Sequence record: CP071152.1
Strand: one strand, 5' to 3'
DNA: 64,000 nt
From: a plasmid
Part shown: positions 15,359 to 48,307 of the stretch, piece after piece
Layout of the letters: each line of letters opens with the position of its first letter
Position numbering within the stretch: the first letter of the stretch is position 1
Translations under genes and position numbers: made by a program
The notes under the pieces: model-generated
Told to the model about the DNA's origin: nothing
What the model saw: only the letters and a program-made list of their open reading frames with translations
The model's database searches: none

Positions 15359-15368
15359 CTGGTGCCCC

Positions 15369-21484: not shown

Positions 21485-22149
21485 TCTTTACCGAAGATAG
21501 GCAAGACGTTGGCCAGAAGGACACTTTTGGTGACTTGGTGCGGTTACTGGCGTTCCTGGTGGTCTGCTTCCTCCCATTCCTGCAAGAGCGCGCGCAGTAC
21601 CAATACACCATTGAGCGGGAGGTGCTGGCCAACCAGGAGGTGATGACTAGCCCCGGCTATGGCACGGCGCAAGGCGTCGCCAAGGGGTTCTACAACGTGG
21701 TCATGACCGATCTTGGGGTCTATCGCTTCCTGCATGTGACCCTCGTCAACACCAAAACACCCTCGGACAAATTCGAGGAGTTCTGGGCCAAGTTCCTCAT
21801 CGTGTCGGAGCGCATCGTCGATAACGTGCCGCTGCTCGTCTACCAGATAGGCTGGCGCTTGGGCGTGGTGGGGTACTGGATCCTCTACTTCATCCCGTTC
21901 TTCGGGGCGAACATCTATAGCGGTGTGCAGCACTGGAAGCTCTCTTTGGCGCAGGCCTCAGGGGCCAAAATCGAACGCTTCAAGGTGTACCGAACCGTTG
22001 TTCGCTACTCGCTGTTTGCCTTCGTGCTCTACCTGTTGATCCCCAGTGCTGGGGCGGCTACTGCCGCCAAATACCTCGTGCCGGGCGGCCTGTTCGTCTG
22101 CGCGGTCATGATCAACAAGATGGTCAGCGCGTACCACAAGATGGTGTAA
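21481..22149 (+). CDS. ICE integral membrane protein (TIGR03747-like)
   Basis: Multiple TM segments; 4-bp overlap with the traD stop. Confidence 0.6.
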   Translation: MIFTEDRQDVGQKDTFGDLVRLLAFLVVCFLPFLQERAQYQYTIEREVLANQEVMTSPGYGTAQGVAKGFYNVVMTDLGVYRFLHVTLVNTKTPSDKFEEFWAKFLIVSERIVDNVPLLVYQIGWRLGVVGYWILYFIPFFGANIYSGVQHWKLSLAQASGAKIERFKVYRTVVRYSLFAFVLYLLIPSAGAATAAKYLVPGGLFVCAVMINKMVSAYHKMV

Positions 22150-22203
22150 CGAAAAAAATTGCAGCATTTTCGAAACAGGGTATTGACTCGACAAATTAAC
22201 TGT

Positions 22204-22217
22204 AACTATCCTATCAG
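22204..22217. promoter_or_regulatory. AACTATCCTATCAG box upstream of the pilin-like gene
   Basis: Same motif as at 17501 and 19514. Confidence 0.35.
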
Positions 22218-22251
22218 CGTTGTTTGAACCATCCAGTATGTAAGGAAACAT

Positions 22252-22581
22252 ATGCAAACCTCAATCGCTCTGCCTCAAGTACCAGCTCAAAACACCTCCA
22301 TGTTCAAATACGCCGTACTGCTGGCGATTGTCGTGGCCCTCGTCTTCTCCCTGGCTCACGCCGGTGCAGATACCACCGCTGTCGATGATGTCTGGGACCA
22401 GCTCTCCGGCTGGGCTAAAGGCGCTCCTGGTAAGATCATCGCCCTGTTGTCCTTCATGTCCGCCATCTGGTTCGGCATCGTAAAACCCAACTACACCAAC
22501 GCGATTGGCTCCATCATCTTCTGCTTGATGATGGCCAACGCGACCGACATCATCGAAAACTTCCTGGCAATGTCCCTGTAA
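22252..22581 (+). CDS. Small hydrophobic pilin-like/VirB2-like ICE protein (TIGR03745-like)
   Basis: 109 aa; two hydrophobic segments; good RBS (TAAGGAAACATATG); followed by a terminator. Confidence 0.6.
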   Translation: MQTSIALPQVPAQNTSMFKYAVLLAIVVALVFSLAHAGADTTAVDDVWDQLSGWAKGAPGKIIALLSFMSAIWFGIVKPNYTNAIGSIIFCLMMANATDIIENFLAMSL

Positions 22582-22617
22582 GTTTCTGTCCTCGCCAGAC
22601 ATTGATGTGTTGTGTAA

Positions 22618-22645
22618 AGCCCCGACATTCGGGGCTTTTCTCGTT
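22618..22645 (+). terminator. Rho-independent terminator (AGCCCC-gacattc-GGGGCT + TTTCTCGTTT)
   Basis: Stem-loop plus T-tract immediately after the pilin-like gene. Confidence 0.5.
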
Positions 22646-22662
22646 TATGGAGACCAGAAATC

Positions 22663-22953
22663 ATGAGTGAAGGCCCGTATCGCGTTCCGTTTCGCCAGAA
22701 TCACCCGACGATGATCATGGGGGTGGAGGCACCGAAGCTGGTGGGCTCGGTGATTTTGTGGGTGGGCATGTCGATCCTGGGGTTAAACACCATCGGGATT
22801 GGGGTGGCCGTGGCCTACTGGATTTTCTACAACCGTACTCAACGGGAAGGAGGGATGAAGGGTGGGGTGCTGCACGTTCTGTGGCGGCAAGGGCTGTGGA
22901 TGGATGGGAAAAAATCAAAATACAATCCGACCGATCCAGACCTTTACAGCTAA
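22663..22953 (+). CDS. Small ICE membrane protein (TIGR03758-like)
   Basis: TM segment LVGSVILWVGMSILGL; 96 aa. Confidence 0.5.
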   Translation: MSEGPYRVPFRQNHPTMIMGVEAPKLVGSVILWVGMSILGLNTIGIGVAVAYWIFYNRTQREGGMKGGVLHVLWRQGLWMDGKKSKYNPTDPDLYS

Positions 22954-22999
22954 TGAAAAATGTCCTAATGTATCCCAAGCGGACAATATGAGGTGTTTT

Positions 23000-23767
23000 A
23001 TGAAAAAGAGCATAATCGCACTGACCATCCTGGCCTCGCTGCTTACTGGCTGTGCCAGTGATGCCGAAAAGATGGCCCAAGACCAGCTGGCGCTGGAACA
23101 GGCTCGCCGCGACGGAGCCGCCGAAGCACGGGCGCAACTCACTGCCCAGATGGAAGAGGAGATGGCTGAGGTGGTGCCGAGCTGGTACCTCGATCCGCCC
23201 AAGATGGATGGCACCGGCGTGTACGGCGTGGGTACTGCCCACACCAAAGATCTGGGCTTCGCCGTGCGCAAGGCCAAGCTCGTCGCAATCTATGAAGCCG
23301 CCAAGGTGTTCAAGATGGAGATGTCCGGTCAAGAGCGTTCCATGACCCGTGATGCGGGTGATGAGGGGGAGGTGGCTGATCGCACTGAGTTGCTGATCGA
23401 CGCGCTGGTGGCCCGGGTGCCTGTTAGCGGCTACGACATCGTCAAAACGAACGTGAAGCCCTATGAGGGGCAGTTCCACGCCTACGTCTTGGCCAAGATC
23501 CCGTTTGACGAGTTCAACTCGGTGATGAAGAACAACAAGGACGAGCTCAAGGGCGAATTTGACGGTGCATTCCAAGCACTTGAGGCCCGCCTGAACGAGC
23601 GTGAAGCGCGTGCCCAAGCGAGCACAGTGACCCCCACCCAACCGGGGGGCAAGCCTGCTGAGTTGGCCAGCCCGCTCCCGAACGGTGGAGCAGCTGCCGC
23701 GCCGCAAACGCCCGCACAGGCAAACGCGGAAATCGCCTCCATGGTTGCCGGTGACCTAAAAAATTGA
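23000..23767 (+). CDS. ICE conjugative lipoprotein (lipobox LLTGCASD)
   Basis: Start at MKKSIIALTILASLLTGC, internal to ORF 22862..23767; signal peptide plus lipobox. Confidence 0.6.
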   Translation: MKKSIIALTILASLLTGCASDAEKMAQDQLALEQARRDGAAEARAQLTAQMEEEMAEVVPSWYLDPPKMDGTGVYGVGTAHTKDLGFAVRKAKLVAIYEAAKVFKMEMSGQERSMTRDAGDEGEVADRTELLIDALVARVPVSGYDIVKTNVKPYEGQFHAYVLAKIPFDEFNSVMKNNKDELKGEFDGAFQALEARLNEREARAQASTVTPTQPGGKPAELASPLPNGGAAAAPQTPAQANAEIASMVAGDLKN

Positions 23768-24255
23768 TGGGAGTCAGCCATCAGGCATTCGGTATCTGTT
23801 TGGCCGCAATAGCGGTAAACGCGGGCTATCTCGACATGTCGATGTGGTTTGCGTTGCCGCTGGCCAGCGCGGGATCGCTTTTTCCTGATGTTGACAGTCA
23901 CCACTCAAAGCTTGGGCGGCGCATCTACCCCGTGTCGGCTCTGATCAACCAGCTGGTGGGTCACCGCACCTTCTTTCATTCACTGATAGCCTGGGGATTA
24001 ACGACGGCAGGCTTCTACTACCTCAACACCCTCTGGCCGGATCTGCCGCAGCAGTTGTGGGCGGCACTTTCCCTCGGGCACCTCAGCCACCTCGTAGGTG
24101 ATATGGCCTTTGGGGGGGGTGTCCAGCTTTTCTGGCCCTATAAGCGGCGGATTAAAGTCATACCCAGTAGGTGGTCAGTCGGGGGGCTCCACGAGTTCGC
24201 TTTTCTGTGCATCTTCCTTGCGACCACTGCCTTTGCCACCGGCTTTCACCTTTAA
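23764..24255 (+). CDS. Membrane-bound metal-dependent hydrolase (DUF457/YdjM-like)
   Basis: His-rich TM protein (DVDSHHSKLGRR..., HRTFFHSL, HLSHLVGD); 4-bp overlap with the upstream gene. Confidence 0.55.
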   Translation: MMGVSHQAFGICLAAIAVNAGYLDMSMWFALPLASAGSLFPDVDSHHSKLGRRIYPVSALINQLVGHRTFFHSLIAWGLTTAGFYYLNTLWPDLPQQLWAALSLGHLSHLVGDMAFGGGVQLFWPYKRRIKVIPSRWSVGGLHEFAFLCIFLATTAFATGFHL

Positions 24256-24380
24256 TGTTTTCCTCGCGTGACAAATAAGTAACAAATCCATGCTCCGACT
24301 CAAGTAAGCCTGTTGGAATTTCTGCTCGTCTCCATATAATGCTAAATGGCTTTAACTATACTGAGGGGAGTGTGGTGGGT

Positions 24381-26744
24381 ATGTATCTAAACAAGCTGAC
24401 AGCACTTATCGCACTGGCGTTATCGACCAGCGCCACCGCGCAGGTCTACGAGCTCAACTTCACTGACACCAATGCGAAGTCAGTTGTGAAGGCCCCGACC
24501 GCGACTTGGTTCAACCCAACTGACTCGGTGATCGTCACCGCCATCTCTGGGCTGGACCGCAAGATCAAGCTGGAACTCATCAAGGGCACGACCGTTGAGC
24601 AGAGCCAAACCTCATCGCTCATCACGCTCGCCAACCGTATTGTCGCATCCGATGGCTCCGAGTTTTATGGCACCAAGTTCACGCTGACCCGGCCAGCTGA
24701 TGGCAATTACACGCTTCGCTCTACCGTGCTCGACATCAAAGGGGTGGTCGTCACCACCAACAGCTACACGTTCAACGTCGATACCGTGGGCCCGTCCACG
24801 CCCAATGCGTTCAAGTTCACCATGGGGGCGGGAACCGGCGGCTCGATTGATGTGTTTGGCACCGACCAAGCAGGCAACGCACTTACCCTCGACGGTCTGA
24901 CCGATGCAGGCAGTGGTATAGATGGCGACAAGGTCACCTACTTCACCATTGATGCGGGTGGGGTGAGGCGCGAGAAGGCGACTGCGATCAGCTCTTCCTA
25001 CCCGGCTACCTGGAACCAGAAGTGTAAGTGGGCAGCGGCGTCCGATGTCGCTCCGGTACAGGGCTTCTACACCTGGGGGTTGGTGCTCGCGGATCGTGCA
25101 GGGAACCTCAGCACGTTCCAGCGCCAGTCCTCGATGGACAACGTAATCCCGCCCTGGTCGATCGAGGTGTGGAACTCACAGACCAGCCAGTGGGTCGCCT
25201 TCGCTAGCGCCGTCAGCTATGAGAATCCGGTACGTTTTCGGATGAAAGTAGACAAGACGAAGCACGTTAGTTTCAACGGCACCAGCTTTGGCATTGCCAC
25301 CAATCCCACTTCGACAGATGCCAATTTTGCCTACTACGAGTACACGGTGCTTATACCGCAGGGCTCGGCAAAATACTGGCGGTTAACCACCAAGGCAGGC
25401 CATTTCACAGACTATAACGCGACAAGTCTGAGCAAGGTTCCGCTTGGCGGCAGCGCCGTGCCGGGGCCGCAAGAGATTAGTTTCCAGTACGGCCTGGTGG
25501 GGCAGCCCCTCACTACCGGAAACACGCTGCGTTTCGCGGCTCCATTCACCATTGACCGGTTATCGGTGAACGTTGCTGCCCGTACCTACCCGCAACGGGC
25601 TGTGGTGGGCAGTAGCAACTGCACTATCCCAGCGGGGAGCACCAACTGCGTCTTGAACCCAAACATCGGTCAGACGGCAGGCCGAGCGTATTCGCTCTAT
25701 ACCCGAAAGTTAGAAAATGCCGACACGCCCTCGATGTACTATCAGGGCACCAACTTCTACGTTATTCACGATTTCAACGCGCCGACTATCGACTCGTTTT
25801 CGTTTGTCCCCGAGACCCGCAAGCTCATCATGCAGGTGACCGACAACGACCGGACCGACAACGACCGCCTTTCCGTTTGGGATACCCGCACGTTCAAAGC
25901 GACAGCCCTTAGCAGCAAGGGCCAGAGCTACACCTTGACCCAGACCCTCTATCGAGAGGAAACCTTCAAGAATAAATACGTCGAGTTCAGCACGGCCAGC
26001 TTGCCCGATGGGCTCTACACCTTCACGGGTCAGGCCATTGATACCGATGGCCATGTTGCCAGCCAAGACCTGCCTGCCACCCTGATCGACGGTGAGGCTC
26101 CTGTCCTCACCATGACGACCGTCAGCGGTGGCGCGGTGACCTCGATTGAGACGCTAAAGGACGTTCGGATCGGCCTGACTGATAACGTCGATGACGAGCC
26201 GATGATCACCAGCCTGACCCTCAAGGGCGGGCCCATCAACGATAACCTGCAACTCGGCTTCTCCAAGGTGTCTGACGGCTACCAGCCCGAAGTGCCCCGG
26301 ATGTTCCCCTCACTGGAAGCGGGGCAAGAGTACACCCTGAAAGTGGATGCCAGGGACACTCAGGGTAACAAGGCCTCCCTGTCGAAAGTCATTTCATTGA
26401 CCCCGCAGAACATGGTCGGGTCAAACCCCATCAACATGCTCTCCGTGGCGAAGTCCTTGCTGGACAAGCACGACCAGCCGCTTGGCGTGGTCAAGTTCAA
26501 GGGTTCGCTGACTGACGGCGGCACCCAGTCTCGCGGTCTCCAGGCAGGCTTTATCACCCTGCGTCGTGACTCGAATTTCTCTGTGATGTTTAACGGCGAT
26601 TTGGTTGCCCCAGGGGAAACCAAGGACATCGTCATTCCGCTCAACGAAGTGGGCGAAGCCGAGCTGCCGGTATGGCCTGCAAACCCAGGTGTGAACGGGA
26701 AGGCTTCATTCATGCTCGACATCCCCCAACTGACTGCCAACTAA
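24381..26744 (+). CDS. Secreted ~790-aa protein, tandem paralogue 1 (type-A core), BIg/cadherin-like beta-rich
   Basis: Signal peptide MYLNKLTALIALALSTSATAQ; strong RBS GAGGGGAG upstream. The conserved N- and C-terminal modules match the three downstream paralogues (e.g. N-terminal QVYEL..., C-terminal ...GKASFM(I/L)DIPQ). Confidence 0.8.
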   Translation: MYLNKLTALIALALSTSATAQVYELNFTDTNAKSVVKAPTATWFNPTDSVIVTAISGLDRKIKLELIKGTTVEQSQTSSLITLANRIVASDGSEFYGTKFTLTRPADGNYTLRSTVLDIKGVVVTTNSYTFNVDTVGPSTPNAFKFTMGAGTGGSIDVFGTDQAGNALTLDGLTDAGSGIDGDKVTYFTIDAGGVRREKATAISSSYPATWNQKCKWAAASDVAPVQGFYTWGLVLADRAGNLSTFQRQSSMDNVIPPWSIEVWNSQTSQWVAFASAVSYENPVRFRMKVDKTKHVSFNGTSFGIATNPTSTDANFAYYEYTVLIPQGSAKYWRLTTKAGHFTDYNATSLSKVPLGGSAVPGPQEISFQYGLVGQPLTTGNTLRFAAPFTIDRLSVNVAARTYPQRAVVGSSNCTIPAGSTNCVLNPNIGQTAGRAYSLYTRKLENADTPSMYYQGTNFYVIHDFNAPTIDSFSFVPETRKLIMQVTDNDRTDNDRLSVWDTRTFKATALSSKGQSYTLTQTLYREETFKNKYVEFSTASLPDGLYTFTGQAIDTDGHVASQDLPATLIDGEAPVLTMTTVSGGAVTSIETLKDVRIGLTDNVDDEPMITSLTLKGGPINDNLQLGFSKVSDGYQPEVPRMFPSLEAGQEYTLKVDARDTQGNKASLSKVISLTPQNMVGSNPINMLSVAKSLLDKHDQPLGVVKFKGSLTDGGTQSRGLQAGFITLRRDSNFSVMFNGDLVAPGETKDIVIPLNEVGEAELPVWPANPGVNGKASFMLDIPQLTAN

Positions 26745-26753
26745 GGACGCAGC

Positions 26754-29162
26754 ATGAGACACAGTCGGAGACTGAAAAAGATTGCGTTGGCTATCGGATT
26801 GCTCTGCACCGGCACCCTTGCCCAGGCACAGGTCTACGAATTGTCCTTCGTGGACACGCTGGGGGCGACCAAGGTCAGAAAGCCCACCGCTACCTGGTAC
26901 AACCCGGCATCGCAGCTGGTGGTGACCACCATCAGTGGGCTGGATCGGATGGTCAAGCTTGAACTGATTAAGGGGACGACAGTTGTTGAGACCCAGACCT
27001 CGCCGCTCATCACGCTCGCAAACCGGATCGTTGCTTCTGATGCCAGCGAGTTTTACGGGGTCAAGTTCAGCCTTACCCCGCCCGCTGATGGCAACTACAC
27101 GCTGCGTACCACCGTGCTCGACATCAACGGCACCCCCGTATCGAGCAACAACTACACGTTCAACGTGGACACAGTTGCGCCAACCGCCGCCCCGATCATT
27201 TCTCAAAACAGCGGGTATAGCCAGGTTACGACCGGTGCTGAATGGAAACTGGGGCTTGGTAACTCCGGCTATGAATACTTCTTCCTGAACTCGGTGGCTG
27301 ATAGCAGTGGCGTCGCCAGCGGCAAATACATCGTCTACCGGCAGGATGGGACTATCTACAAGAGCGTGGATGTGCCGTTCACCTCCGCCACCAACTCGTT
27401 CACCTACGCCATTGAGAACAGCTTCCCCAATTCGAATTTGCAGGAGGTCTTCAAGATTGGCTTCGACGTTACTGACCTTGCTGGCAACGTCTTTATCAGT
27501 CCTCGTCAGGGGGTGCGCTACGACAACATGCTGGGTACACCGTCCCAGCCGTTCGGTGTCTACGATCCGACCTCTAGCAACGTGCTCGGCCCCGGGCTTG
27601 ATGGCTTCGTGCCTTACGTGTCTGGGATGACGGTGAAGACCAACCCGATCCGGCTGGCCTACCGGATCCCGGTGAGTGACTACGGTGGATATTACGAGTG
27701 GGGCACCCGACTCCTGAATGGAGGCGGCGAGAACATCAAGGTGGGTGAGGACGCGAACTACGTCTACATCACCATGTCCGCTCCCTTTGGCCTCAAGGAC
27801 ATCAACACCATCCGCTGGACCACCTTTGGCCAGTGGGGTTATGGCTATTTCGATTACAACCTGGTGCAGGATGCCACTGCCCCTGTCACCCCCGCAATGT
27901 CCTCCGTGCAGTATGAGTACAGCGACATCGGCTGGTCCGATTGGGCACGTAACGTGCTGAACGACGCTCTGCCGGTCACCATCACCGGTTACCGGGTTAC
28001 CGCAAAGGCCCGCACCTACGACCAGACGTTTTCCCATCGCGGTGGTACATGCGTCATCCCGGCAGGAGACACCACCTGTACCATCACCGCCAACAAGGTG
28101 CTGAATAAGGGGACTGCGGGTGGCATACATGATCAGGCAAACCTGAAAAATCCCGGCGGCACCCTCTGGTCGAATCCGGGCTGGGCTGATGTGTACTGGA
28201 ACGATCTTTACTACCCCCAAGTCACACCGGAGTACAATGACAGCACCAAGATCCTGAAACTGCTCATCAAGCTGCCAGGCTACGGTGGTAGTGGCGGACG
28301 GATCAATCTGAGCTCACTCACCCTGGAGAGCAAGGGGGTGAAGGTCACTCCAACCGGCGGCAAAATTGCGCAAAGCGGCGGGGATTTCACCTACCAATAC
28401 GACTTGGCCACCCTGCCAGAGGCGACCTATGACCTCGCTGTGGTAGCGAAGGAGACGTTTGGCCCGACCACAAAACTGGATCTGTTCCATTTTGTCTCCG
28501 ACCGCACTGCTCCCACCCTCGCAATGACCTACAAGGGTGGCGCTGTCCCAACGGGCGTCGAAACCATCAAAGATCTTCGGGTGCAGATCGCCGACACGGT
28601 CGACACCCACCCGCAAATCACTCGCATGACCCTCAAGGGCGGCCCGATCAATGACGCGCTGGATTTGGGCTTCTCCCAGCTGGCCGACGGGTACGCACCC
28701 GAGGTACCCCGGATGTTCCCGACACTGGAAGCCGGGCAGTCCTACACCCTGAAAGTCGATGCCCAGGATAGCCAAGGGAACAAGACGAGCCTGACTAAAG
28801 TCTTCTCGCTCAGTCCCCAGAACATGGTGAGCGCAGACCCCGTCAACATGATGTCGGTCTCGAAGTCCTTGATGGACGCCAACGACAAACCCCTCGCGCT
28901 GGTGAAATTCAAAGGCAGTTTGACCGACGGCGGCACCCAGTCACGCGGACCCCAGACCGGGTACATCACCCTGCGCCGCGACGCCAATTTCTCGGTGATG
29001 TTCAACGGCACCCAGATTGCCCCAGGCGAGACCAAAGACATCGTTATCCCACTCGACCAAACCGGTGAGGCAAATCTGCCGGTATGGCCAGCCGAGCCCG
29101 GCGTCGACGGAAAGGCGTCGTTCATGATCGACATCCCCCAAGTTGTCGCGGTCAGTGAGTAA
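26754..29162 (+). CDS. Secreted 802-aa protein, tandem paralogue 2 (type-B core)
   Basis: Signal peptide MRHSRRLKKIALAIGLLCTGTLAQAQ. N- and C-terminal modules shared with paralogues 1, 3 and 4; middle ~430 aa matches paralogue 4. Confidence 0.8.
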   Translation: MRHSRRLKKIALAIGLLCTGTLAQAQVYELSFVDTLGATKVRKPTATWYNPASQLVVTTISGLDRMVKLELIKGTTVVETQTSPLITLANRIVASDASEFYGVKFSLTPPADGNYTLRTTVLDINGTPVSSNNYTFNVDTVAPTAAPIISQNSGYSQVTTGAEWKLGLGNSGYEYFFLNSVADSSGVASGKYIVYRQDGTIYKSVDVPFTSATNSFTYAIENSFPNSNLQEVFKIGFDVTDLAGNVFISPRQGVRYDNMLGTPSQPFGVYDPTSSNVLGPGLDGFVPYVSGMTVKTNPIRLAYRIPVSDYGGYYEWGTRLLNGGGENIKVGEDANYVYITMSAPFGLKDINTIRWTTFGQWGYGYFDYNLVQDATAPVTPAMSSVQYEYSDIGWSDWARNVLNDALPVTITGYRVTAKARTYDQTFSHRGGTCVIPAGDTTCTITANKVLNKGTAGGIHDQANLKNPGGTLWSNPGWADVYWNDLYYPQVTPEYNDSTKILKLLIKLPGYGGSGGRINLSSLTLESKGVKVTPTGGKIAQSGGDFTYQYDLATLPEATYDLAVVAKETFGPTTKLDLFHFVSDRTAPTLAMTYKGGAVPTGVETIKDLRVQIADTVDTHPQITRMTLKGGPINDALDLGFSQLADGYAPEVPRMFPTLEAGQSYTLKVDAQDSQGNKTSLTKVFSLSPQNMVSADPVNMMSVSKSLMDANDKPLALVKFKGSLTDGGTQSRGPQTGYITLRRDANFSVMFNGTQIAPGETKDIVIPLDQTGEANLPVWPAEPGVDGKASFMIDIPQVVAVSE

Positions 29163-29172
29163 GGAAGACCAG

Positions 29173-31539
29173 ATGAAGCTGAAAACACAAGTGACAAGGA
29201 TTGCGCTGGCGGTTGGGGTGCTCTGTTTGGCCAGCGTTGCCCAGGCTCAGATCTACGAAATGTCATACACGGACACCAACGGAGCCTTGCAGGTCAAGGG
29301 CCCTGCGGTGACCTGGTACAGCACCAACAGCGATGTGGTGGTGACGGCCATTTCCGGGCTTGACCGCAAAGTGAAGCTGGAACTGGTGAAGGGGACCACG
29401 GTGGTTCAAAGCCAGACCTCGGGGCTTATCACGGTTGCAAACCGGATCACCGCCGCCGATGGCAAGGAGTTCTATGGCACCAAGTTCACCCTGACCCGAC
29501 CGGCGGACGGGAACTACACCCTGCGCTCTACCGTGCTGGACATCAACAATGCGGTGGTGACAGCCACTAACTACACCTTCAACGTCGATACCGTGGGGCC
29601 CTATTCGACGCAGGCCTTCTCCTTCACGGTAGGTGGGGGTACAGGTGGTTCGGTGGCGGTGTTTGGCCCGGATTCGGGTGGGAACTCCATCAACCTCAAT
29701 GGCATTGTGGATGATGGCAGTGGCGTAGCCTCCGCGACCTATTACACCATCGACTCAGCCGGGACCAAGCGCGAGAAGGCGACAACACTCACCTCCACGA
29801 CGCCAGCAAACTGGAACGTCAAAGCGAACTGGGCTTCTGCGAGCAACGTAACCCCGACTCAGGGGCTTTACACCATTGGCCTCGCTATGACCGATGTGGC
29901 AGGCAACATCGGGAAAAAAGAGAACCAGAGCTATATCGACCCGATCCTGCCACCGCTGGTATCGGAGATCTGGAACTCATCCACCGGGCTGTGGCAACCG
30001 CTGGCCGGAGCCGTCAGCTACGAGAACCCGGTGAAGGTTAGGGTCAAGATCCCCAAGACCGACCATGTGAACTTCAATGGCACCAACTACGGCTTCGTGC
30101 AGTCGCCGCACAGTACCGATGCCACCTATGCCTACTACCAATACACGGCGTCAGCGCCCTCGTCCTATGGCTACTGGCGCTTTACCACCAAGGCTGGCCT
30201 CTATCGCGATGTCCAAACGTCGGTCGTGAATAGCGTCACCCTGCTTGGCAGTGCAGCCCCCGGACCGGCCTACACCAACATGCAGTACGGGGTGGTGGGC
30301 AAGGCCATGGTCAACTCAGGCTGGGTACGATTTAGTGTGCCAACGACCGTCGATCGCGTGACGGTGAATGTGGCCGCCCGTTCCTATCCGCAAAAAATCA
30401 CGGTCAACAACGCCAACTGTGTCGTGCCGATTGACGGAACCACCTGCACGATGGACCCGCTGGTGAGTTACACCACTGGGCGCGGGTACATCCCGTACAC
30501 CATCAACATCACCAACACGGTCAATACCTCGCAGAGCGTGAACGTGGGGTATTTCTACACCTATTGGGATTTCAACCCGCCTGTCATAGACGACTTCACC
30601 TATACCTCCGACGCCCGCAAGCTCTTCTTGTACGTCACGGACAATGACCGCACCGATAACTGGCAGTTAAGCGCGTGGGATACCCGCGATTTCACGGTCA
30701 AGGCCACCAATAGCGCGAACCAAGTGTTCACCATGCCGCTGATCACCTCCAGAGACGAGAGCTACAAGAACAAGTACGCAGAGTTCAACACCGCCTCGTT
30801 GGCCGAAGGGGTGTACGACTTCACGGCGACCGCGACTGACACCTACGGCAACGCCGCGACAAGAACGCTCTCCGGGGTGGTGGTTGACTCGACTGGCCCG
30901 AGTATCAGCGTGACCAACAAGGGCGGCTCGATGACCAGCGTGGAAACCATCAAGGATTTCCGCGTGTCCTTGGAGGACAGCGTCGACCCGGAGCCGGTCA
31001 TCACCTCGATGAGCCTGGTGGGTGGCCCCATCAATGACAAGCTGCTGCTGGGTTACTCCAAGCTCTCCGACGGATGGCAACCCGAAGTACCCCGGATGTT
31101 CCCCACCCTCAAGCCGGGCCAGGAATACACCTTCAAGGTGGAGGCCAAGGACTTCCAGGGCAACAAATCCACGTACAGCAAGACCTTCTCGTTGACCCAA
31201 CAGAACCTTGTCGAAGCGGACGGGGTCAGTGTGATGGCGGTCTCGAAGTCCCTCATGGACTCCCACGATCAACCCCTCGGGATGGTTGAGTTCAAAGCTG
31301 CCTTGACGGACGGCGGCACCCAAAGCCGTGGGCCACAAGCTGGGTACATCACCCTGCGTAGCGATGCGGCCTTTGGCGTGATTTTTAACGGCCAGCCAGT
31401 GCAACCCGGTGAAACCAAGGATGTGGTGATCCCGCTCGATGTGGAAGGGATGGCGAAACTGCCGGTGTGGCCAGCGACATCTGGAACCAATGGCGTAGCG
31501 AGTTACATGATCGACATCCCCCAACTGGTCGCCAACTAA
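29173..31539 (+). CDS. Secreted ~788-aa protein, tandem paralogue 3 (type-A core)
   Basis: Start at MKLKTQVTRIALAVGVLCLASVAQAQ (RBS AAGGAAG). Middle region homologous to paralogue 1. Confidence 0.8.
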   Translation: MKLKTQVTRIALAVGVLCLASVAQAQIYEMSYTDTNGALQVKGPAVTWYSTNSDVVVTAISGLDRKVKLELVKGTTVVQSQTSGLITVANRITAADGKEFYGTKFTLTRPADGNYTLRSTVLDINNAVVTATNYTFNVDTVGPYSTQAFSFTVGGGTGGSVAVFGPDSGGNSINLNGIVDDGSGVASATYYTIDSAGTKREKATTLTSTTPANWNVKANWASASNVTPTQGLYTIGLAMTDVAGNIGKKENQSYIDPILPPLVSEIWNSSTGLWQPLAGAVSYENPVKVRVKIPKTDHVNFNGTNYGFVQSPHSTDATYAYYQYTASAPSSYGYWRFTTKAGLYRDVQTSVVNSVTLLGSAAPGPAYTNMQYGVVGKAMVNSGWVRFSVPTTVDRVTVNVAARSYPQKITVNNANCVVPIDGTTCTMDPLVSYTTGRGYIPYTINITNTVNTSQSVNVGYFYTYWDFNPPVIDDFTYTSDARKLFLYVTDNDRTDNWQLSAWDTRDFTVKATNSANQVFTMPLITSRDESYKNKYAEFNTASLAEGVYDFTATATDTYGNAATRTLSGVVVDSTGPSISVTNKGGSMTSVETIKDFRVSLEDSVDPEPVITSMSLVGGPINDKLLLGYSKLSDGWQPEVPRMFPTLKPGQEYTFKVEAKDFQGNKSTYSKTFSLTQQNLVEADGVSVMAVSKSLMDSHDQPLGMVEFKAALTDGGTQSRGPQAGYITLRSDAAFGVIFNGQPVQPGETKDVVIPLDVEGMAKLPVWPATSGTNGVASYMIDIPQLVAN

Positions 31540-31548
31540 GGAGCAAAG

Positions 31549-33960
31549 ATGAGCATGAATTTGAACCTGACAAAACTGGCGGCGGCCATTGGATTGCTCT
31601 GTAGCGCGAGCTTTGCCCACGCTCAAGTTTACGAATTGTCGTATACGGACCCTTACTCAGCCGTGAAAGTGCAGAAGCCGTCCGTGAAGTTTATCAACCC
31701 CGCTTCGGGGCTGACGGTAACGGCCATTTCTGGCCTTGACCGCAAGGTGAGACTGGAACTTATCAAGGGCACCACCGTAGTCCAGAGCCAGACCTCCCCG
31801 CTGATCACGGTCGCCAACCGGATTGTGGCCTCCGATAGCAACGAGTTTTACGGCACCAAATTCACCGTCAGCGACCCGGGCGATGGCAACTACATCCTGC
31901 GCTCTACCATCCTCGACATCTCCGGGGTGGTGGTTGCTACCACCGACTATCCGCTGATGCTGGACCGCGTTGCGCCTACCTCTAACCCTATCGCCGTGCA
32001 AAATAGCACCGGCTACAGTCAGGTATCGAGCGGGCCTGAGTGGAAGTTGGGGACGGGCGGATCCGAGACCCCCGACATCCTGATCACCGGCCTGTCCGAT
32101 AGCAGTGGTATCGCTAGCGGAAAATTCGTGGTCTATCGGGAGAGTGGCGCGGTCTACAAGAGCGTGGCGCTCAGCTACAACGCGAGCTCGAACAGCTTTG
32201 CCTATCCGAAAAATTCCACGTTCCCGAGTTCGAACCTGGATGAGTTGTTCAAGCTCCAGTTTGAAGTGACAGACCTCGCGGGCAACGTCTACAAGACCCC
32301 GTTGCAAGGGGCCCGCTGGGATAACATCGCCAACCCGCCGGGTGTGTTCGGTGTGTATAACCCGAACACCAGCTCCACGCTGGCCCCAGGCCTGACCGGT
32401 TTCGACCCCTATGTGAGCGGCATGACCGTCATGACCAACCCGATCCGGCTAGCCTATCGGCTTGCTCGCACCAACTATGCCGGTTACGTCCAATCGGGGA
32501 TCAACTTGACGAACGGGGTGGGGGAAGTCACCAAAGTCGGTGAGGATGCCGACTATGTCTACCTGACCATGACGACGCCCTTTGGTTTTACCGATGGCAA
32601 CTACGTGCGTTGGGTCAACTTTGGTTCTTGGGCTGGTGGCAACATCGGCTACAACCTGGTGCTCTCTCCCAGTGCGGCGCAAACCCCGGTGATGAGCAAA
32701 GTCGAGTATCTGTACAGTGACATTGGCTGGGCCAGCTGGAACCGCTGGGATGTTCAAAATGACCTGCTGCCCATCACGATCACTCAGGAGCGGGTCACCG
32801 TTCAAGCGCGGCCCTACGATCAGAAGTGGTCTCACCACGCGACCTGTACCATTCCGGCGGGCCAAACGTCCTGTACCAACAACTGGACCGCCACCATGGC
32901 GCTGGGCACCACCGGTTACCTGCATGACGGGGCCATGTTGACCAACGTGGACGGCAGTCTCAGGGGAAATCCAGGCTGGGCCAACGTCACCTGGAACGAC
33001 AGACATTACCCCGCCATCGCCACTGAGTACGATGCCGCTACCAAGTCCCTCAAGTTGATGATCAACCAGCCTGGACGGGGATCCTACTTCGACCATCTTC
33101 GACTCAAAGATGTGTGGCTGGAGGGCAATGGTGTGAAGGTGACCCCGACTGGCGGCAAGATTGCCGAAAGTGGTCCCGACTACACCTATCAGTACAACCT
33201 CGCCTCGCTGCCAGAAGGTGTCTACAACAACCTCGCTGTGTTTGCGCTGGAGATGCACGGCCCGAAAACCAAGGTCAGTCTCTTTGACTTCACCTCCGAC
33301 CGTACCCCGCCCACATTGACGATGAGCTACAAAGGCGGCGCAGTACCCGCTGGGGTTGAAACCATCAAAGATCTGCGCGTGAAGGTCACCGACACGGTGG
33401 ACACCAAGCCGCAGATCACCCGCATGACGCTCAAGGGCGGCCCGATCAATGACGCGCTGGATCTGGGGTTTACCCTGCAAGGCGGTGAATACGCACCCGA
33501 GGTGCCCCGGATGTTCCCGACACTGGAAGCCGGGCAAACCTACACGCTGAAAGTTGAGGCTCAGGACAACCAGAGCAACAAATCGAGCCTGACCCAAACC
33601 CTCTCGTTGTCCCCCCAGAACATGGTGAGCGCAGACCCCGTCAACATGATGTCGGTCTCGAAGTCCTTGATGGACGCCAACGACAAACCCCTCGCGCTGG
33701 TGAAGTTCAGAGGCAGCCTGACAGACGGGGGTTCGCAGTCACGCGGCCCGCAGTCCGGCTACATCACGCTGCGTCGTGATTCGAACTTCTCCGTGATGTT
33801 CAACGGCACCCTGATCGCCCCCGGCGAAACCAAGGACATCGTGATCCCGTTGGACACCGCAGGCGAGGCGAGTCTGCCGGTGTGGCCAGCCGAGCCCGGC
33901 GTGAATGGTAAAGCGAGCTACATGATTGATATTCCTCAAGTTGTGACAGTCGACGAATAA
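31549..33960 (+). CDS. Secreted 803-aa protein, tandem paralogue 4 (type-B core)
   Basis: Signal peptide MSMNLNLTKLAAAIGLLCSASFAHAQ. A C-terminal ~95-nt tract is nucleotide-identical to paralogue 2 (33608-33700 vs 28806-28898). Confidence 0.8.
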   Translation: MSMNLNLTKLAAAIGLLCSASFAHAQVYELSYTDPYSAVKVQKPSVKFINPASGLTVTAISGLDRKVRLELIKGTTVVQSQTSPLITVANRIVASDSNEFYGTKFTVSDPGDGNYILRSTILDISGVVVATTDYPLMLDRVAPTSNPIAVQNSTGYSQVSSGPEWKLGTGGSETPDILITGLSDSSGIASGKFVVYRESGAVYKSVALSYNASSNSFAYPKNSTFPSSNLDELFKLQFEVTDLAGNVYKTPLQGARWDNIANPPGVFGVYNPNTSSTLAPGLTGFDPYVSGMTVMTNPIRLAYRLARTNYAGYVQSGINLTNGVGEVTKVGEDADYVYLTMTTPFGFTDGNYVRWVNFGSWAGGNIGYNLVLSPSAAQTPVMSKVEYLYSDIGWASWNRWDVQNDLLPITITQERVTVQARPYDQKWSHHATCTIPAGQTSCTNNWTATMALGTTGYLHDGAMLTNVDGSLRGNPGWANVTWNDRHYPAIATEYDAATKSLKLMINQPGRGSYFDHLRLKDVWLEGNGVKVTPTGGKIAESGPDYTYQYNLASLPEGVYNNLAVFALEMHGPKTKVSLFDFTSDRTPPTLTMSYKGGAVPAGVETIKDLRVKVTDTVDTKPQITRMTLKGGPINDALDLGFTLQGGEYAPEVPRMFPTLEAGQTYTLKVEAQDNQSNKSSLTQTLSLSPQNMVSADPVNMMSVSKSLMDANDKPLALVKFRGSLTDGGSQSRGPQSGYITLRRDSNFSVMFNGTLIAPGETKDIVIPLDTAGEASLPVWPAEPGVNGKASYMIDIPQVVTVDE

Positions 33961-33971
33961 GGAAGGACTAG

Positions 33972-36900
33972 ATGAAGATGAATAAAACAAAAATTGCCGT
34001 AGTGGTCAGTGCGGTCCTCGCACAACCAGCCTTCGCTGCTTCGATGACTGTGACAGGCGAGATCAACACCACCACCCCGACCGTGCAGGTGACGCCCAAA
34101 GGGACACTCTACGAGGGGGTCAAGGAGTCTGAGATCAAGCTCTCCTCGAACAACGAGGGCTGCCGCGTGGTCTACAAAGAGTCCGCGCTGGAAACCCTGC
34201 AACCGGGGGTATTGGGCTGCTACCTGGTGATCGACCCCGCTGATTTGCCGGTAGGGATCGAGTTCGACCCAGGCCAAGCCAGGCTGATTGGCACCACTGC
34301 CCAAAGCGGGCAAAAGGCAGTGCCCTATAAGCTCTTCTACAAATCCGGTAGTGCTGGCACCCCGGAGGAAGTTGGCTCTGGCGTGCTGCCGTTCCTGATC
34401 ACCCCGACCCTGCCGCCGGTCATCACCAACATCTTCGGTCGCTTTGACGAGCCGGTGTGGGATCTGGGCAAAGAGCCCTCCGTTCATCGCCGCTCGACCT
34501 CTGGCCAGCTCAAGTTCATGGTGGAGCCGCGCCCGTTTGACCAGCGGATCGTGATCAGCGACTTCTCGAACTGCGTGGTGAAGGAGGGGGAAGACAACTG
34601 CGTGGCGGTGAACAATTCCATGCAGAACATTCTGGGTGAGAGTGAGACGGGCAACAAGCCGATGCTGGTGTCCGCCAACTCCACCAACAACTACTTTGCG
34701 CCAGTGAACGATCAGGTTGCTCTGTCCTGGGACTTTAGGCCGCCGCTGGTGGGCGCGAACGTGCAGGGTAATACCGAATCGCCGCTCCAAACCATCGAGA
34801 CCACCGAAGGGGTGCAAGATGTGCCGTATTCGACCATCGCGGTCATCGTCAACTCGCCCCACAATGACCAGACCAAGAGCTGGTGGCACCCAGCCACCCT
34901 CAAGATGGTGCTGACGCCCGACCCAGAATCGCCGCGCAAGATCTATCTGTCCTACAAGAGTCGGCAACTGCTGAGTGTCGCGGGCACCACCCACGACAAC
35001 ACCACCGTGGCGGCCACGCCAGTAGGCAAATACATCGTTACCGGCCCGCAGCAGTTCCGGTACAACTTCGACATGAACACCATCAAGGATGGTGACTTCC
35101 TGGTGAAGATGGAGGTAACCGACCAGTACGGCAACACCAGCACCTCGGACGCCAGGCCCATCCGTCTGGACCGCTATGGCCCGCAAGTCGGCCTGTATGG
35201 GCCCGACCTGTCTGCTGTGGCCGATGGCGAAGTGGTGTTCTTCCCCGAACGCCTGACGGTCGCCTCCTACAACGGGTATACCGGCGGCGTGGTCGAGACG
35301 AAGGCCACCCTGGGCGGCGTTGAGTTGCCGTTGTCCCCCACGGACACTGAGGGTGTGTTCACCGTTGGCAAAACCGACCTCTCTGCCCTGACCTCGGGTG
35401 AATCCTACCCGCTGATCGTGACTGCCAAGGACAAGGCCGATCGGGTCACCACCAAGACCTACCAGGTCCGCTATGCCGCGACCGCGCTTAGCCTCTCACC
35501 GACTCCGGCCAACCCTGTACAGTTTGTGCAGCGGGTGTCCGTGAAGGTCGACAACACCGGCTACAACTGCCCCATTAACTACACCCAGGAGCAGGCCGCA
35601 GAGATGGCGGCGACCTACAACAAGATTGCCTGCTATGCCGAGTGGGATCTGCCACCGGGCATGGAAGCGACCGTGAGCGTTCTGGGTAACGTTGTGCTCG
35701 AAGGCTTCGTGGACGACACCGTGGGCCGTATCGGCTACACGCTCCACGCGGTAAGCCCCGAAGGGTATGTTATGGAGGTCACCAAGGGCTCCGTGGATCT
35801 GAAACCCACGCCTGCCACCGAACCTGTCATCTCCTTCCAGGGACGGCGCAAGCAGGGCGATGATGGCCTGATGATCGACATTAATGGCGGGGTGGCCGGT
35901 AGTGCAATCGTCAACTCGTCGCCGGGCGATCTGGATCTGACCGTGAACATTCCGGGTGTGGGTGAGACGACCAACTCCATCCGTATGCGCCCGCGTCCGA
36001 CTGGCGGGGACTCCAAGACCTCCGCAATCATCAAGGTGCCGAAGGGCGACATCTGGACCGTCTACCCGGTCGAGATCAAGGCCAAGTATTCTCGTACCAA
36101 TGAGCTGTCCGCTACCAAGGAAGGCAAGGTTTATATCGTGCCGTCCAAGAACTTGAAGATAAACATGAGCGGGATGGATCGGGAGTCGGTGGATAACGAA
36201 ACCTCCACGATCTCCTCGTCCATCGGGGAGTTCGACAGCAAGACCAAGCAGATCAACTACCGCCAGAACGAGCACGGCGAGTGGAACATGCGCTTGATGC
36301 AGGTCGTCACCAGCTACAAGGACGGCAATCAGTCCAAGACCTTTGTCCCGCTCACCGACATTAAGAAGACCGATGCCGAAGGCAAGGTGGATCTGGTGTT
36401 CGACCCGAGCAAGGCAGAAGGCCGGTCCATCACCTACGTGACCGAGGGTGAGGTTATTTCGCCCTTTGCCCAGTTCAAGCTCAAGATTGTCTCTGCCAAA
36501 CGCCACCTGAACCTCATCAAGGGGGTAGGGGTGGATGGTACGCCCAACGTGACCGAAATCGTTGACCAGGTGCCGATGAAGGCGACCATCAAGGTCAAGC
36601 CGGATTCCGAGCAAGATAAGGATGCGCTAGGCGAGGTGGAGTGGCAGATCCGCAGCGGCGATTCCGGTGCATGGGTGCCTGCACCCGAAGCAACGGGCCG
36701 CTTGAGCTACGTGTTCACCACCGAGGAGCCGGGCAAATGGCAGGTGCGGGCCATCCTGCACAACCGCTTGACCAACGTCACCAACCCGACCGACATCACC
36801 ACCCTGGTTGCCTATGCCAAACCTGACATCCAGCTGGTGCAGAAGAAGATCGTCCTCAAGGGTCAACCAATCCCGCTGGAAGTGACCGGCAGCCATGGCG

Positions 36901-38177
36901 CTGAGATCGATGATGCGCTCAACGTGCAATGGTCCACCGATGGCAAGCACTGGGAAGATGGTGATCGGGAAACGGAAATGATGGTCGCACCCGACAGCAA
37001 CTATCTCTATGCCCGTGCTGAGTTCGCCAACAGTCAATCGGAGGCGGAAGCCAGCAGTTGGGTGACCACCAAGATCATGCCGAAGGTGCTGACACCGGCG
37101 CAAGTGCGGGCCAGCGTGACCGGTCCCGATAAGGTCGAGATCAACAAGCCGTTCACCCTGACAGGCTCGTACAAGAACGATTACCAGCTGGTCGAAGGCG
37201 TCAAGTATCAGGAAGAGTGGGTGCTGCCGGATGGTACCGTTCGCAGCGGGCACGATGTTGTCTACACGCCGACCGAAGATGGCAAGACCCTGCCGTTCAC
37301 CTACCGTGTCTGGCTCGACGGCTACAAGGAGACCACCGTCAAGGAAGTCGTGAAGGAGGTCGATACCTGGGCCTACTACTTCCCGACCTTCTACAGCGGC
37401 CAGCGCCAGTATTTCAAACTGGCCCCGACCACTATCGAGGTGCGCAACACCACTAAACTCCCGTCGTTCCCGGGCGTGGTGTACGACATCAAGGTTACGC
37501 ACGGGGAGGGTGTGACCGATGTGAGCTTTGACAAGGAGAAGGGCCGCTATGTCGGTACCATCAACGAGCCAGGCATTCACAGCGTCTTCATTACCCTGAG
37601 CGATAACCGGGGCAACTCAGAGACCCAAGAGCATCTGTTTGCCGTCGATGAGTCCGAACCCATGCAGGCGAAGATCACCCCGAGCTACAGCAACAAGTTC
37701 ATGCGGGCCCCGCTGTCGGTGAACATGAGCAGTAGCATCGAGCTGGATCACCCCTCTGACAACCTCAAGGAGTTCAGCTGGGTGCTCGATGGCGTGCTGG
37801 TCAAGGACACAATGCGCCGTCAGCTGTTCGCCAACCTGCCCGAAGGTGACCACACCATCGAGTTCAAGGCGCTCAGTGACTTCGGCCAGCGTGCGCTGGT
37901 GAGCCACGACTTCACCGTGCTCAAGAACAAGCCAGCCGAGTGTGACTTGCAGCAGAGCGACACGACCACTTCATGGCGCGTGAAGATGTCCTGCGTGGAC
38001 ACCGATGGCCGTATCGTGGCCTATCGCTGGAAGATCGACGGCGAGACCATCGGCAACACCAGCTATGCAATCTCGCTGACCAAGGCGTTGAACCCTGGCT
38101 CGCACGAGATTGAGGCGGTGGCTATCGACGACTCCGGTGACGAAACCAAAGATTCGACCACGCTTACCGGGCAGTGA
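33972..38177 (+). CDS. Secreted 1401-aa multidomain protein with C-terminal tandem Ig/PKD-like ~90-aa modules
   Basis: Signal peptide MKMNKTKIAVVVSAVLAQPAFAAS. Repeated W..DG....G......L..G.H.I.....D.G modules (e.g. EWQIRSGDSGAW..., QWSTDGKHW..., FSWVLDGVLV..., YRWKIDGETIG...). RBS AAGGAAGG. Confidence 0.8.
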   Translation: MKMNKTKIAVVVSAVLAQPAFAASMTVTGEINTTTPTVQVTPKGTLYEGVKESEIKLSSNNEGCRVVYKESALETLQPGVLGCYLVIDPADLPVGIEFDPGQARLIGTTAQSGQKAVPYKLFYKSGSAGTPEEVGSGVLPFLITPTLPPVITNIFGRFDEPVWDLGKEPSVHRRSTSGQLKFMVEPRPFDQRIVISDFSNCVVKEGEDNCVAVNNSMQNILGESETGNKPMLVSANSTNNYFAPVNDQVALSWDFRPPLVGANVQGNTESPLQTIETTEGVQDVPYSTIAVIVNSPHNDQTKSWWHPATLKMVLTPDPESPRKIYLSYKSRQLLSVAGTTHDNTTVAATPVGKYIVTGPQQFRYNFDMNTIKDGDFLVKMEVTDQYGNTSTSDARPIRLDRYGPQVGLYGPDLSAVADGEVVFFPERLTVASYNGYTGGVVETKATLGGVELPLSPTDTEGVFTVGKTDLSALTSGESYPLIVTAKDKADRVTTKTYQVRYAATALSLSPTPANPVQFVQRVSVKVDNTGYNCPINYTQEQAAEMAATYNKIACYAEWDLPPGMEATVSVLGNVVLEGFVDDTVGRIGYTLHAVSPEGYVMEVTKGSVDLKPTPATEPVISFQGRRKQGDDGLMIDINGGVAGSAIVNSSPGDLDLTVNIPGVGETTNSIRMRPRPTGGDSKTSAIIKVPKGDIWTVYPVEIKAKYSRTNELSATKEGKVYIVPSKNLKINMSGMDRESVDNETSTISSSIGEFDSKTKQINYRQNEHGEWNMRLMQVVTSYKDGNQSKTFVPLTDIKKTDAEGKVDLVFDPSKAEGRSITYVTEGEVISPFAQFKLKIVSAKRHLNLIKGVGVDGTPNVTEIVDQVPMKATIKVKPDSEQDKDALGEVEWQIRSGDSGAWVPAPEATGRLSYVFTTEEPGKWQVRAILHNRLTNVTNPTDITTLVAYAKPDIQLVQKKIVLKGQPIPLEVTGSHGAEIDDALNVQWSTDGKHWEDGDRETEMMVAPDSNYLYARAEFANSQSEAEASSWVTTKIMPKVLTPAQVRASVTGPDKVEINKPFTLTGSYKNDYQLVEGVKYQEEWVLPDGTVRSGHDVVYTPTEDGKTLPFTYRVWLDGYKETTVKEVVKEVDTWAYYFPTFYSGQRQYFKLAPTTIEVRNTTKLPSFPGVVYDIKVTHGEGVTDVSFDKEKGRYVGTINEPGIHSVFITLSDNRGNSETQEHLFAVDESEPMQAKITPSYSNKFMRAPLSVNMSSSIELDHPSDNLKEFSWVLDGVLVKDTMRRQLFANLPEGDHTIEFKALSDFGQRALVSHDFTVLKNKPAECDLQQSDTTTSWRVKMSCVDTDGRIVAYRWKIDGETIGNTSYAISLTKALNPGSHEIEAVAIDDSGDETKDSTTLTGQ

Positions 38178-38512: not shown

Positions 38513-38649
38513 TCGAGTACAGCTGGTTATCTTTGACGACTTAACCACCTGCTTTGCCCTCGGTCACCCCGAGGGCTCTTTTCAGGTGCTTTCCTACTCA
38601 CCTTCATTCCCTCGCTCGCAACGCGCAACAAACCGACCACAGGTGACAC

Positions 38650-45276: not shown

Positions 45277-45510
45277 ATGAGCGAGTCACTGGATGTTGTC
45301 GGGCTGGAGTGCGAAGAGGCAATGTTCTACATCAAGGATGTGTTGCGCAAAGGCCACGGCCTGCCCCTGGCAGTGCGCTCAGCCAGCGCCCCGTTTCACC
45401 AACTGCTGAGTCTGTGGGCAAGCTCGACAGACCATCTGCTACACCCTGCGATCAAGCCGGTGCAGGGGGAGGTCTGGGAATTGACGGTCAGTAAGGTGAT
45501 GCCATGTTGA
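45277..45510 (+). CDS. Hypothetical small protein between the dndB-like and dndC-like genes
   Basis: ORF 45205..45510 with an internal Met start MSESLD. Confidence 0.25.
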   Translation: MSESLDVVGLECEEAMFYIKDVLRKGHGLPLAVRSASAPFHQLLSLWASSTDHLLHPAIKPVQGEVWELTVSKVMPC

Positions 45511-47788: not shown

Positions 47789-47815
47789 CGCTCGCTGCTA
47801 GGATACCCATACAGT

Positions 47816-48265: not shown

Positions 48266-48266
48266 C

Positions 48267-48307
48267 TCCCCTTATATCCCCGCCCTAACGGCGAGGGTTT
48301 ACGGGGC
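48267..48307. repeat. Internal hairpin end (CCCCTTATATCCCCGCCCTAACGGCGAGGGTTTACGGGG)
   Basis: Inverted copy at 49836-49872. Confidence 0.6.

Follow-up and report, generated by a model that had tools for sequence, protein, structure and literature searches.

The operon and its genes

The window considered here is a stretch of 64,000 nucleotides (nt) from a plasmid (sequence record CP071152.1). Its subject is an operon of 13.8 kb made up of five open reading frames (ORFs), g1 to g5, which lie on the same strand and are spaced just 9, 10, 9 and 11 nt apart. Table 1 presents the coordinates of these genes and of the features that surround them. The first four genes encode proteins of about 800 amino acids (aa) that resemble RSP2 of the conjugative plasmid R27, while the last encodes a larger protein that resembles RSP. 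A Shine-Dalgarno-like motif, either AAGGA or GGAG, is found 6-10 nt before each of the five starts. In the case of g1, the reading frame extends further upstream as a longer ORF from 24339, and the RefSeq start at 24381 has been adopted.

The five N-termini share a basic start, a hydrophobic run with a Kyte-Doolittle mean of 2.3-3.0 over 10 residues, and an A-x-A site ahead of a conserved QVYEL sequence. Judged from composition and hydropathy, they look like Sec signal peptides. An earlier, sequence-only reading of the window had described a co-directional set of five genes with ribosome-binding sites and signal peptides, and the gaps, motifs and N-termini bear this out. The promoter-like site that precedes g1 and the terminator-like hairpin that follows g5 are consensus matches only. 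The sequence upstream of g1 that holds the promoter-like site is also retained in a plasmid of A. rivipollensis.

Table 1. Coordinates of the operon genes, the sites within and around them, and the neighbouring transfer genes.
Feature	Position in window	Strand	Remarks
traD	19556-21484		upstream of the operon
DUF4400 gene	21481-22149		after traD
pilin gene traA (TraA family)	22252-22581	+	named from homologue annotation; after the DUF4400 gene
terminator-like hairpin	22616-22638		3' of traA
promoter-like site	24313-24340	+	TTGGAA, 16-nt spacer, TATAAT; consensus scan, 10/12 matches; 41 nt 5' of g1
g1	24381-26744	+	RSP2-like, type A core, 787 aa from the RefSeq start
crossover site CTGCCGGTATGGCC	26664-26677 (g1), shared with 29076-29089 (g2)	+
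g2	26754-29162	+	RSP2-like, type B core, 802 aa
92-nt identical tract, g2 copy	28815-28906	+	C module, within a gene-conversion tract
g3	29173-31539	+	RSP2-like, type A core, 788 aa
g4	31549-33960	+	RSP2-like, type B core, 803 aa
92-nt identical tract, g4 partner	33613-33704	+
g5	33972-38177	+	RSP-like, 1401 aa
terminator-like hairpin	38556-38576	+	consensus scan; 8-bp stem with 7 G-C pairs, then a T-rich tail; about 380 nt past g5

Membership in the RSP2 and RSP families

Each of the g1-g4 proteins consists of a DUF4165 domain (residues ~23-140), a Big_3_2 domain and a Big_3_3 domain (~544-695), all above the Pfam curated cut-offs. This is the layout published for RSP2 of R27 (R0055), a protein of 794 aa with DUF4165 at 23-142, Big at 143-254 and Big_3 at 537-693 (Huttener et al. 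2022, PMC8730810), and the Pfam layout of RSP2 from pHCM1 (WP_000666931.1, 794 aa) is equal to that of g1-g4. The likeness to R27 RSP2 extends to length (787-803 aa here), to the order and position of the domains (DUF4165 at ~23-142, Big_3_2, then Big_3_3 at ~540-695), to the signal-peptide-like N-terminus and to the location of the gene on a MOBH plasmid with an F-type pilus. By BLASTP, g1 matches pHCM1 RSP2 over its full length and nearly without gaps (32% identity, E 7e-121), and g2 aligns with it at 26% identity (E 3e-63), with gaps in the core. Both g2 and g4 are nearer to a second IncHI1 paralogue of 818 aa (WP_001226764.1) than to RSP2; in tblastn, g2 is 33% identical to that paralogue and 40% identical to the N-terminal 800 aa of the Big protein of IncC plasmids.

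Residues 3-1400 of g5 match genes annotated as "rsp: IncHI-type conjugal transfer protein RSP" at 26.8% identity (tblastn, E 4e-125). The two also agree in size and fold, g5 having 1401 aa and the RSP (R0009) of IncHI1 and IncHI2 plasmids being a 155-kDa protein, both almost wholly beta-strand (Huttener et al. 2019, PMC6764697). Because RefSeq names g5 an "Ig-like domain-containing protein" and an NCBIfam scan of it gave no relevant match, the RSP naming model included, we class g5 by homology as a distant relative of RSP and not as an IncHI RSP in the strict sense. Given the published RSP2 layout of g1-g4 and the full-length RSP match of g5, the architecture is not outside described families, as the sequence-only reading had supposed.

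That reading had also taken sequence motifs to suggest BIg-like folds, and in this it was right: Pfam finds Ig-like domains in all five proteins, and the AlphaFold2 model of g2 is all-beta, a string of beta-sandwich domains with a mean predicted local distance difference test score (pLDDT) of 74. The PKD match of g5 at residues 1339-1396 is sub-threshold in Pfam, no single stretch passing. A sequence search of solved structures with g2 and g5 gave nothing significant, and Foldseek of the g2 model against the Protein Data Bank returned only generic multi-Ig rods, with template modelling (TM) scores of 0.1-0.17 and no specific functional lead. An identity as chaperone-usher or type V secretion adhesins was ruled out, since Pfam and NCBIfam find no usher, chaperone or autotransporter beta-barrel domain in the five proteins; Pfam likewise finds none in the products of the two genes immediately upstream.

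Relatives of these genes are common among plasmids. By tblastn, PLSDB holds 3058 plasmids with relatives of g2 and 2966 with relatives of g5, about 90% of which are typed as conjugative; those inspected, and the lengths of those listed, suggest that IncC and IncHI types make up the greater part. An exhaustive profile search yielded 282 clusters (50% identity) at E <= 1e-30, with the best matches falling mainly into two length classes of ~800 aa and ~1820-1870 aa. A word-indexed protein search returned 14 matches, too few to describe the family, and a scan of genome contigs with narrow back-translated patterns found only four loci, including that of A. rivipollensis plasmid p1.

Two core types between conserved ends

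The four RSP2-like proteins align end to end, and the alignment divides them into N and C modules that flank a central core. Among g1-g4, amino-acid identity is 63-72% in the N module and 59-83% in the C module. In the core, it falls to 48% for g1/g3 and 56% for g2/g4, and further to 20-25% when a type A core (g1, g3) is compared with a type B core (g2, g4). The pattern noticed at the outset, in which conserved ends enclose two core types in A-B-A-B order, is therefore upheld by the module identities of g1-g4. The alternation is not conserved: the order in A. media plasmid pE31A, which carries five ~800-aa genes and one 1401-aa gene, is A-A-B-B-B.

Module-wise identities were taken further in an alignment of 18 family members from 6 plasmids. 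Type A cores occur in g1, g3, two pE31A genes, the R27-type RSP2 and one IncHI2 gene, and are 28-35% identical between plasmid groups. Type B cores occur in g2, g4, three pE31A genes, the second IncHI1 paralogue, two IncHI2 genes, tandem genes of Klebsiella and the N-terminal part of the IncC protein, with 29-52% identity between plasmid groups. Type A and type B cores compared with one another reach 17-25%. These values indicate that the two core types are ancient and present across plasmid groups. Among individual cores, that of g3 is 91% identical to the core of pE31A gene 1, and those of g2 and g4 are 46-52% identical to the core of the IncC N-terminal part, g4 standing at 52%. A type A core is found in 1439 PLSDB plasmids, nearly always once in each; in Aeromonas plasmids it is found twice.

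The composition of the arrays varies, with three, four or five ~800-aa genes among related plasmids. R27 differs from the Aeromonas operon in that its single type A gene (RSP2) and single type B paralogue lie apart from each other and distant from rsp, whereas the Aeromonas operon places two A and two B copies in tandem with an rsp homologue. The Klebsiella IncHI-like plasmid p12208-IMP has three tandem ~800-aa DUF4165/Big genes with a fourth nearby, and multi-copy arrays are therefore not unique to Aeromonas. It differs in that all four copies are type B, the gaps exceed 130 nt and the rsp homologue does not stand beside the array. The proposition that types A and B always co-occur is ruled out by this plasmid, which has no type A among its four copies.

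The IncHI2 plasmid p131681 encodes three ~800-aa DUF4165/Big_3_2/Big_3_3 proteins at 7993-10383 (-), 14004-16424 (+) and 20618-23074 (-) of its own sequence, one of them with a type A core at 35% identity to that of R27-type RSP2. These genes contrast with the statement that IncHI2 plasmids are without rsp2 (PMC8730810); in the published view, RSP2 is confined to IncHI1 and a group of IncN plasmids.

Recombination and selection among the paralogues

Of all exact matches between pairs of these genes, a run of 92 nt shared by g2 and g4 (Table 1) is by far the longest, the next longest being 20-33 nt. Given the 77% identity of the flanking sequence, a run of this length has a probability of about 7e-9, and the identity is not due to chance. 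Nor is the tract an artefact of assembly, given that the 13.8 kb recur at 99.4-99.9% identity in three complete plasmids assembled independently. Nucleotide-identical stretches between paralogues, as the sequence-only reading had reported, do exist in the form of this tract; the pairing proposed for it, 33608-33700 with 28806-28898, is out of register and matches at 23 of 93 positions.

Divergence along the genes points the same way. Synonymous divergence (dS) between g2 and g4 drops to 0.41-0.56 over alignment columns 641-760, which contain the 92-nt identity, and ranges from ~0.7 to saturated in all other windows of the alignment. Between g2 and its orthologue, pE31A gene 3, the N module and core are ~90% identical; from column ~641 onwards dS rises from 0.3-0.8 to mostly 1-3 and nonsynonymous divergence (dN) from 0.01 to 0.15-0.32, and the C module has therefore been replaced.

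A third line of evidence comes from A. rivipollensis plasmid p1, which has only three ~800-aa genes. The first of them tracks g1 and its upstream region as far as window position 26663 and then follows g2 from 29090 to the stop codon, with all informative sites past the switch in the g2 state. The intervening sequence, CTGCCGGTATGGCC, is common to both genes, and an unequal crossover between g1 and g2 within it took out exactly one unit of 2412 bp. Together with the 92-nt tract and the fall in dS between g2 and g4, this crossover confirms that the paralogues recombine.

Beyond single events, the N and C modules group by plasmid lineage and not by core type. Within Aeromonas plasmids, A and B copies are 61-73% identical in the N module and 57-75% in the C module, and Aeromonas copies of either type are 26-40% identical in these modules to the IncHI, Klebsiella and IncC copies. 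Between the R27 lineage and that of the Aeromonas operon, the N and C modules are just 30-40% identical. Within IncHI1, the A and B copies are 57% (N), 48% (C) and 18% (core) identical. The comparison of modules thus carries the signature of concerted evolution of the ends within each plasmid lineage, a feature for which no description in these proteins was found in the literature searched.

Selection on the genes is of the conservative kind. Orthologues give dN/dS ratios of 0.14-0.17 and same-type paralogues one of 0.23, and the ratio exceeds 1 in none of the windows. Because of these values, all copies are regarded as maintained under purifying selection, and diversifying selection is ruled out.

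The fifth gene and the fused IncC protein

The last gene of the operon is related to the other four. An hhalign comparison pairs residues 108-502 of g5 with columns 325-677 of the RSP2-family profile (probability 96.5%, E 8.5e-10), and the match includes a common R-x-[YF]-x-Q...C...C motif. Further along, residues 507-1396 of g5 align with residues 935-1826 of the IncC protein, in its C-terminal half (E 2e-57). Because g5 matches both the RSP2-family profile and the IncC protein, profile comparison places all five genes in one superfamily. The position of g5 as last gene of the paralogue operon differs from that of rsp in R27, which lies in the Tra2 region away from rsp2.

The Big protein of IncA/C (IncC) plasmids is ~1830-1845 aa long and is represented by ALG87338.1 of pKAZ3 and WP_000606835.1 of pSH111_166. 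Its first ~800 aa are RSP2-like with a type B core and its last ~900 aa align with g5. It differs from the Aeromonas operon in being a single fused polypeptide with no type A copy and no array, and in lacking a counterpart of the first ~500 residues of g5. In the window, g4 and g5 are separate genes, a stop codon and an 11-nt gap dividing them where a fusion would give one polypeptide of ~1830 aa. The IncC N-terminal core is closest to that of g4, which lies directly 5' of g5, and by alignment a gene of g4 type and one of g5 type seem to have been fused in the 1828-aa IncC protein.

The plasmid setting

The operon DNA is matched at 99.4-99.9% identity in three complete MOBH plasmids of Aeromonas, 241-244 kb in size, and the 24 kb that lie 5' of it match the same three plasmids at 99.6-99.8%. 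One of these near-identical plasmids is pMCR5_045096, which is typed MOBH; MOB-suite assigns one of the three to the conjugative class. Pfam identifies TraC, TraE, TraK, TrbI/TraB, the coupling protein TraD and a DUF4400 protein in the flanks of the operon. The pilin gene takes its name from its homologues, annotated as "TraA family conjugative transfer protein" in pE31A and as "pili assembly chaperone" in pMCR5_045096. In the more distant pE31A, the traD, DUF4400 and traA block is kept and the Big genes lie further downstream, past a stretch rich in insertion sequences. In IncC plasmids a homologous Big gene also comes after traA.

The operon had been thought to be cargo of an integrative and conjugative element. 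In place of chromosomal integration, attachment sites and an integrase, the operon and tra region match circular plasmid records. The sole nearby recombinase gene is small, with a RefSeq coding sequence of 663 bp (~220 aa). A search of E. coli complete genomes gave no DNA match. The cargo proposal is set aside in view of the close match to MOBH plasmids and the position of the operon within a conserved transfer region after traD, DUF4400 and traA. From these comparisons the operon is taken to be backbone of the transfer region of a large MOBH plasmid, present in two plasmid lineages, and not cargo.

Between the pilin gene and the operon, three small genes at 22663-24255 (+) encode a 96-aa hypothetical protein, a protein with a sub-threshold match to LPP20 lipoprotein, and a YdjM-family membrane hydrolase; the equivalent interval of pE31A is broken up by insertion sequences. 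Further upstream, among the mating-pair-formation genes traC, traV, traB, traK and traE, are genes for a 617-aa helix-turn-helix protein at 9133-10986 (-) and for a 649-aa DEAD/helicase-related protein at 17530-19479 (-).

Proposed role in conjugation

Published functional work on the homologues has been done in Salmonella carrying R27 or pKAZ3. RSP occurs in the periplasm and the medium, is exported by way of a periplasmic intermediate and needs the type IV secretion ATPase TrhC (trhC); it binds flagella, reduces motility and is required for R27 conjugation (PMC6764697). RSP2 interacts with RSP and requires it, together with TrhH and the pilin TrhA, for export; RSP and RSP2 alike bind to flagella and coat the conjugative pilus (PMC8730810). 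IncA/C plasmids encode a secreted protein of 1843 aa with the same three Pfam domains, which conjugation requires at 25 °C but not at 37 °C.

With these precedents, we consider it probable that the five genes form a conjugation-accessory operon in the backbone of an Aeromonas MOBH plasmid with an F-type pilus, supplying four RSP2-type proteins and one RSP-type protein. The architecture, homology, layout, location and recombination come from this analysis; the mechanism is drawn from homologues and genomic context. By analogy, each protein would pass the inner membrane through Sec into the periplasm, and its release to the cell surface or medium would require the plasmid's own type IV secretion ATPase (TraC/TrhC) and pilin. 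Outside the cell, rod-like chains of beta-sandwich domains could bind the conjugative pilus and flagella, leading to lower motility and a stabler contact between donor and recipient. The expected outcome would be a rise in plasmid transfer, chiefly in liquid and at environmental temperatures. We further infer that the conserved N and C modules may dock to partners particular to each lineage, for example the pilus, RSP or the secretion machine, and that the divergent, old A and B cores may hold different binding functions. The sequence-only reading had proposed an adhesin or mating-contact role together with surface variation; secreted, Ig-like, conjugation-linked proteins fit the first part and what is published for RSP and RSP2 (PMC6764697, PMC8730810), while surface variation is unsupported.

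Several points weigh against a conjugation-accessory role. Identity to the characterised proteins is just 27-33%, and because of this a function in Aeromonas can only be inferred, what has been described for R27 and pKAZ3 being carried over solely through homology and genomic context. In the report on the near-identical pMCR5_045096 (PMC6548960), the single published attempt gave no transconjugants, and the plasmid is called non-self-transmissible after unsuccessful matings; this lineage may have a defective transfer system or one that needs other conditions. The division of labour between docking ends and target-binding cores is a suggestion of ours only, and a role modelled on homologues does not account for the presence of four or five paralogues. 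Nonetheless, pMCR5_045096 has an apparently extensive F-type tra set along with RSP and RSP2 homologues, belonging to a family whose members matter at 25 °C.

A more ambitious proposal would treat RSP2-type arrays as a modular recognition repertoire. The ends would connect every copy to the pilus, RSP and secretion machinery of its own plasmid, leaving the A and B cores, with their sub-variants, to bind different donor or recipient appendages or surfaces. Recombination in the ends would reshuffle the array, whose make-up would then adjust the efficiency of mating or its host range in aquatic communities. We offer this tentatively, as an idea with an outside chance of being correct. A related explanation, to which we give a somewhat slimmer chance, is that the proteins are recipient-recognition or mating-specificity factors, each core type binding its own recipient structure so that the make-up of the array sets the mating host range. 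Consistent with it are the two ancient core types kept across IncHI1, IncHI2 and Aeromonas plasmids, the purifying selection on each copy, the variation of array make-up by lineage, and the duplication here of a type A core that is single-copy in ~1400 plasmids. However, published work describes binding to the pilus and flagella of the donor itself and not to recipient cells (PMC8730810), and Klebsiella plasmids have type B copies only.

We think it unlikely that the genes encode general adhesins or biofilm proteins carried as accessory cargo, which would serve attachment to surfaces or to a host organism and have no part in transfer. Ig-like domains are not in themselves specific to conjugation, and the Foldseek matches are to generic rod-like multi-Ig proteins that include SiiE and an Aeromonas RTX adhesin. 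Yet the family is tied to MOBH/MPF_F plasmids, the gene sits inside the tra region beside the pilin gene in distant plasmid groups, and its characterised members act in conjugation (PMC8730810); moreover, no usher, autotransporter barrel, type I secretion signal or sortase motif was found in g1-g5. Least probable is a variable surface cassette in which gene conversion makes variants that evade phage, predators or immunity: conversion tracts, unequal crossover and the spread of three to five copies among related plasmids would suit it, but the low dN/dS of orthologues and same-type paralogues argues against antigenic variation, recombination homogenises ends that are already conserved and leaves the divergent cores intact, all copies are full-length with Shine-Dalgarno-like motifs in one operon, and no silent cassettes, invertible promoter or nearby invertase were seen at the locus.

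Other features of the window

Several genes of the window lie apart from the operon. At 2764-3582 there is a toxin-antitoxin pair of the MazF/PemK-MazE type that is 92.8% identical to modules of small A. salmonicida plasmids. Downstream of the operon, a divergent pair at 44159-45217 (-) and 45504-46622 (+) encodes a DndB-like protein (PF14072) and a PAPS-reductase-like protein and may form a DNA-modification or defence module; the pair is missing at the equivalent position of pMCR5_045096. Two TnpB-type genes (IS605 OrfB, of the RNA-guided nuclease family) follow at 46743-47810 (-) and 49931-51103 (+), with an ORF of 541 aa between them (48192-49817) that has no Pfam match. The segment 53858-63900 is 99.3% identical to a region common to many plasmids of Aeromonas and others, and carries a TnAs1-type Tn3-family transposase (54102-56855), mercury-resistance genes and msr(E). 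The GC content is 62-66% across 54-62 kb of the window and 41% at its end.

Significance

The RSP and RSP2-type Big proteins of plasmids are already known; what is new at this locus is the tandem operon arrangement of two A copies, two B copies and RSP, and the concerted ends. The homologues RSP and RSP2 aid the conjugation of IncHI and IncA/C resistance plasmids, and RSP-type proteins, being surface-exposed and encoded by resistance plasmids, have already been proposed as antibody or nanobody targets (PMC11268884). The present analysis extends the family to large Aeromonas resistance plasmids, in the lineage of the mcr-5 plasmid pMCR5_045096. RSP2-like genes are far commoner than the published view holds, and the plasmids sampled from IncHI1, IncHI2 and the IncHI-like group of Klebsiella have two to four copies each. 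There are two old core types in the family, its ends evolve in concert within each plasmid lineage, and the locus would supply a simple origin for the fused IncA/C protein. While no new kind of system is revealed, these results should be useful for annotation and for the choice of conserved targets.

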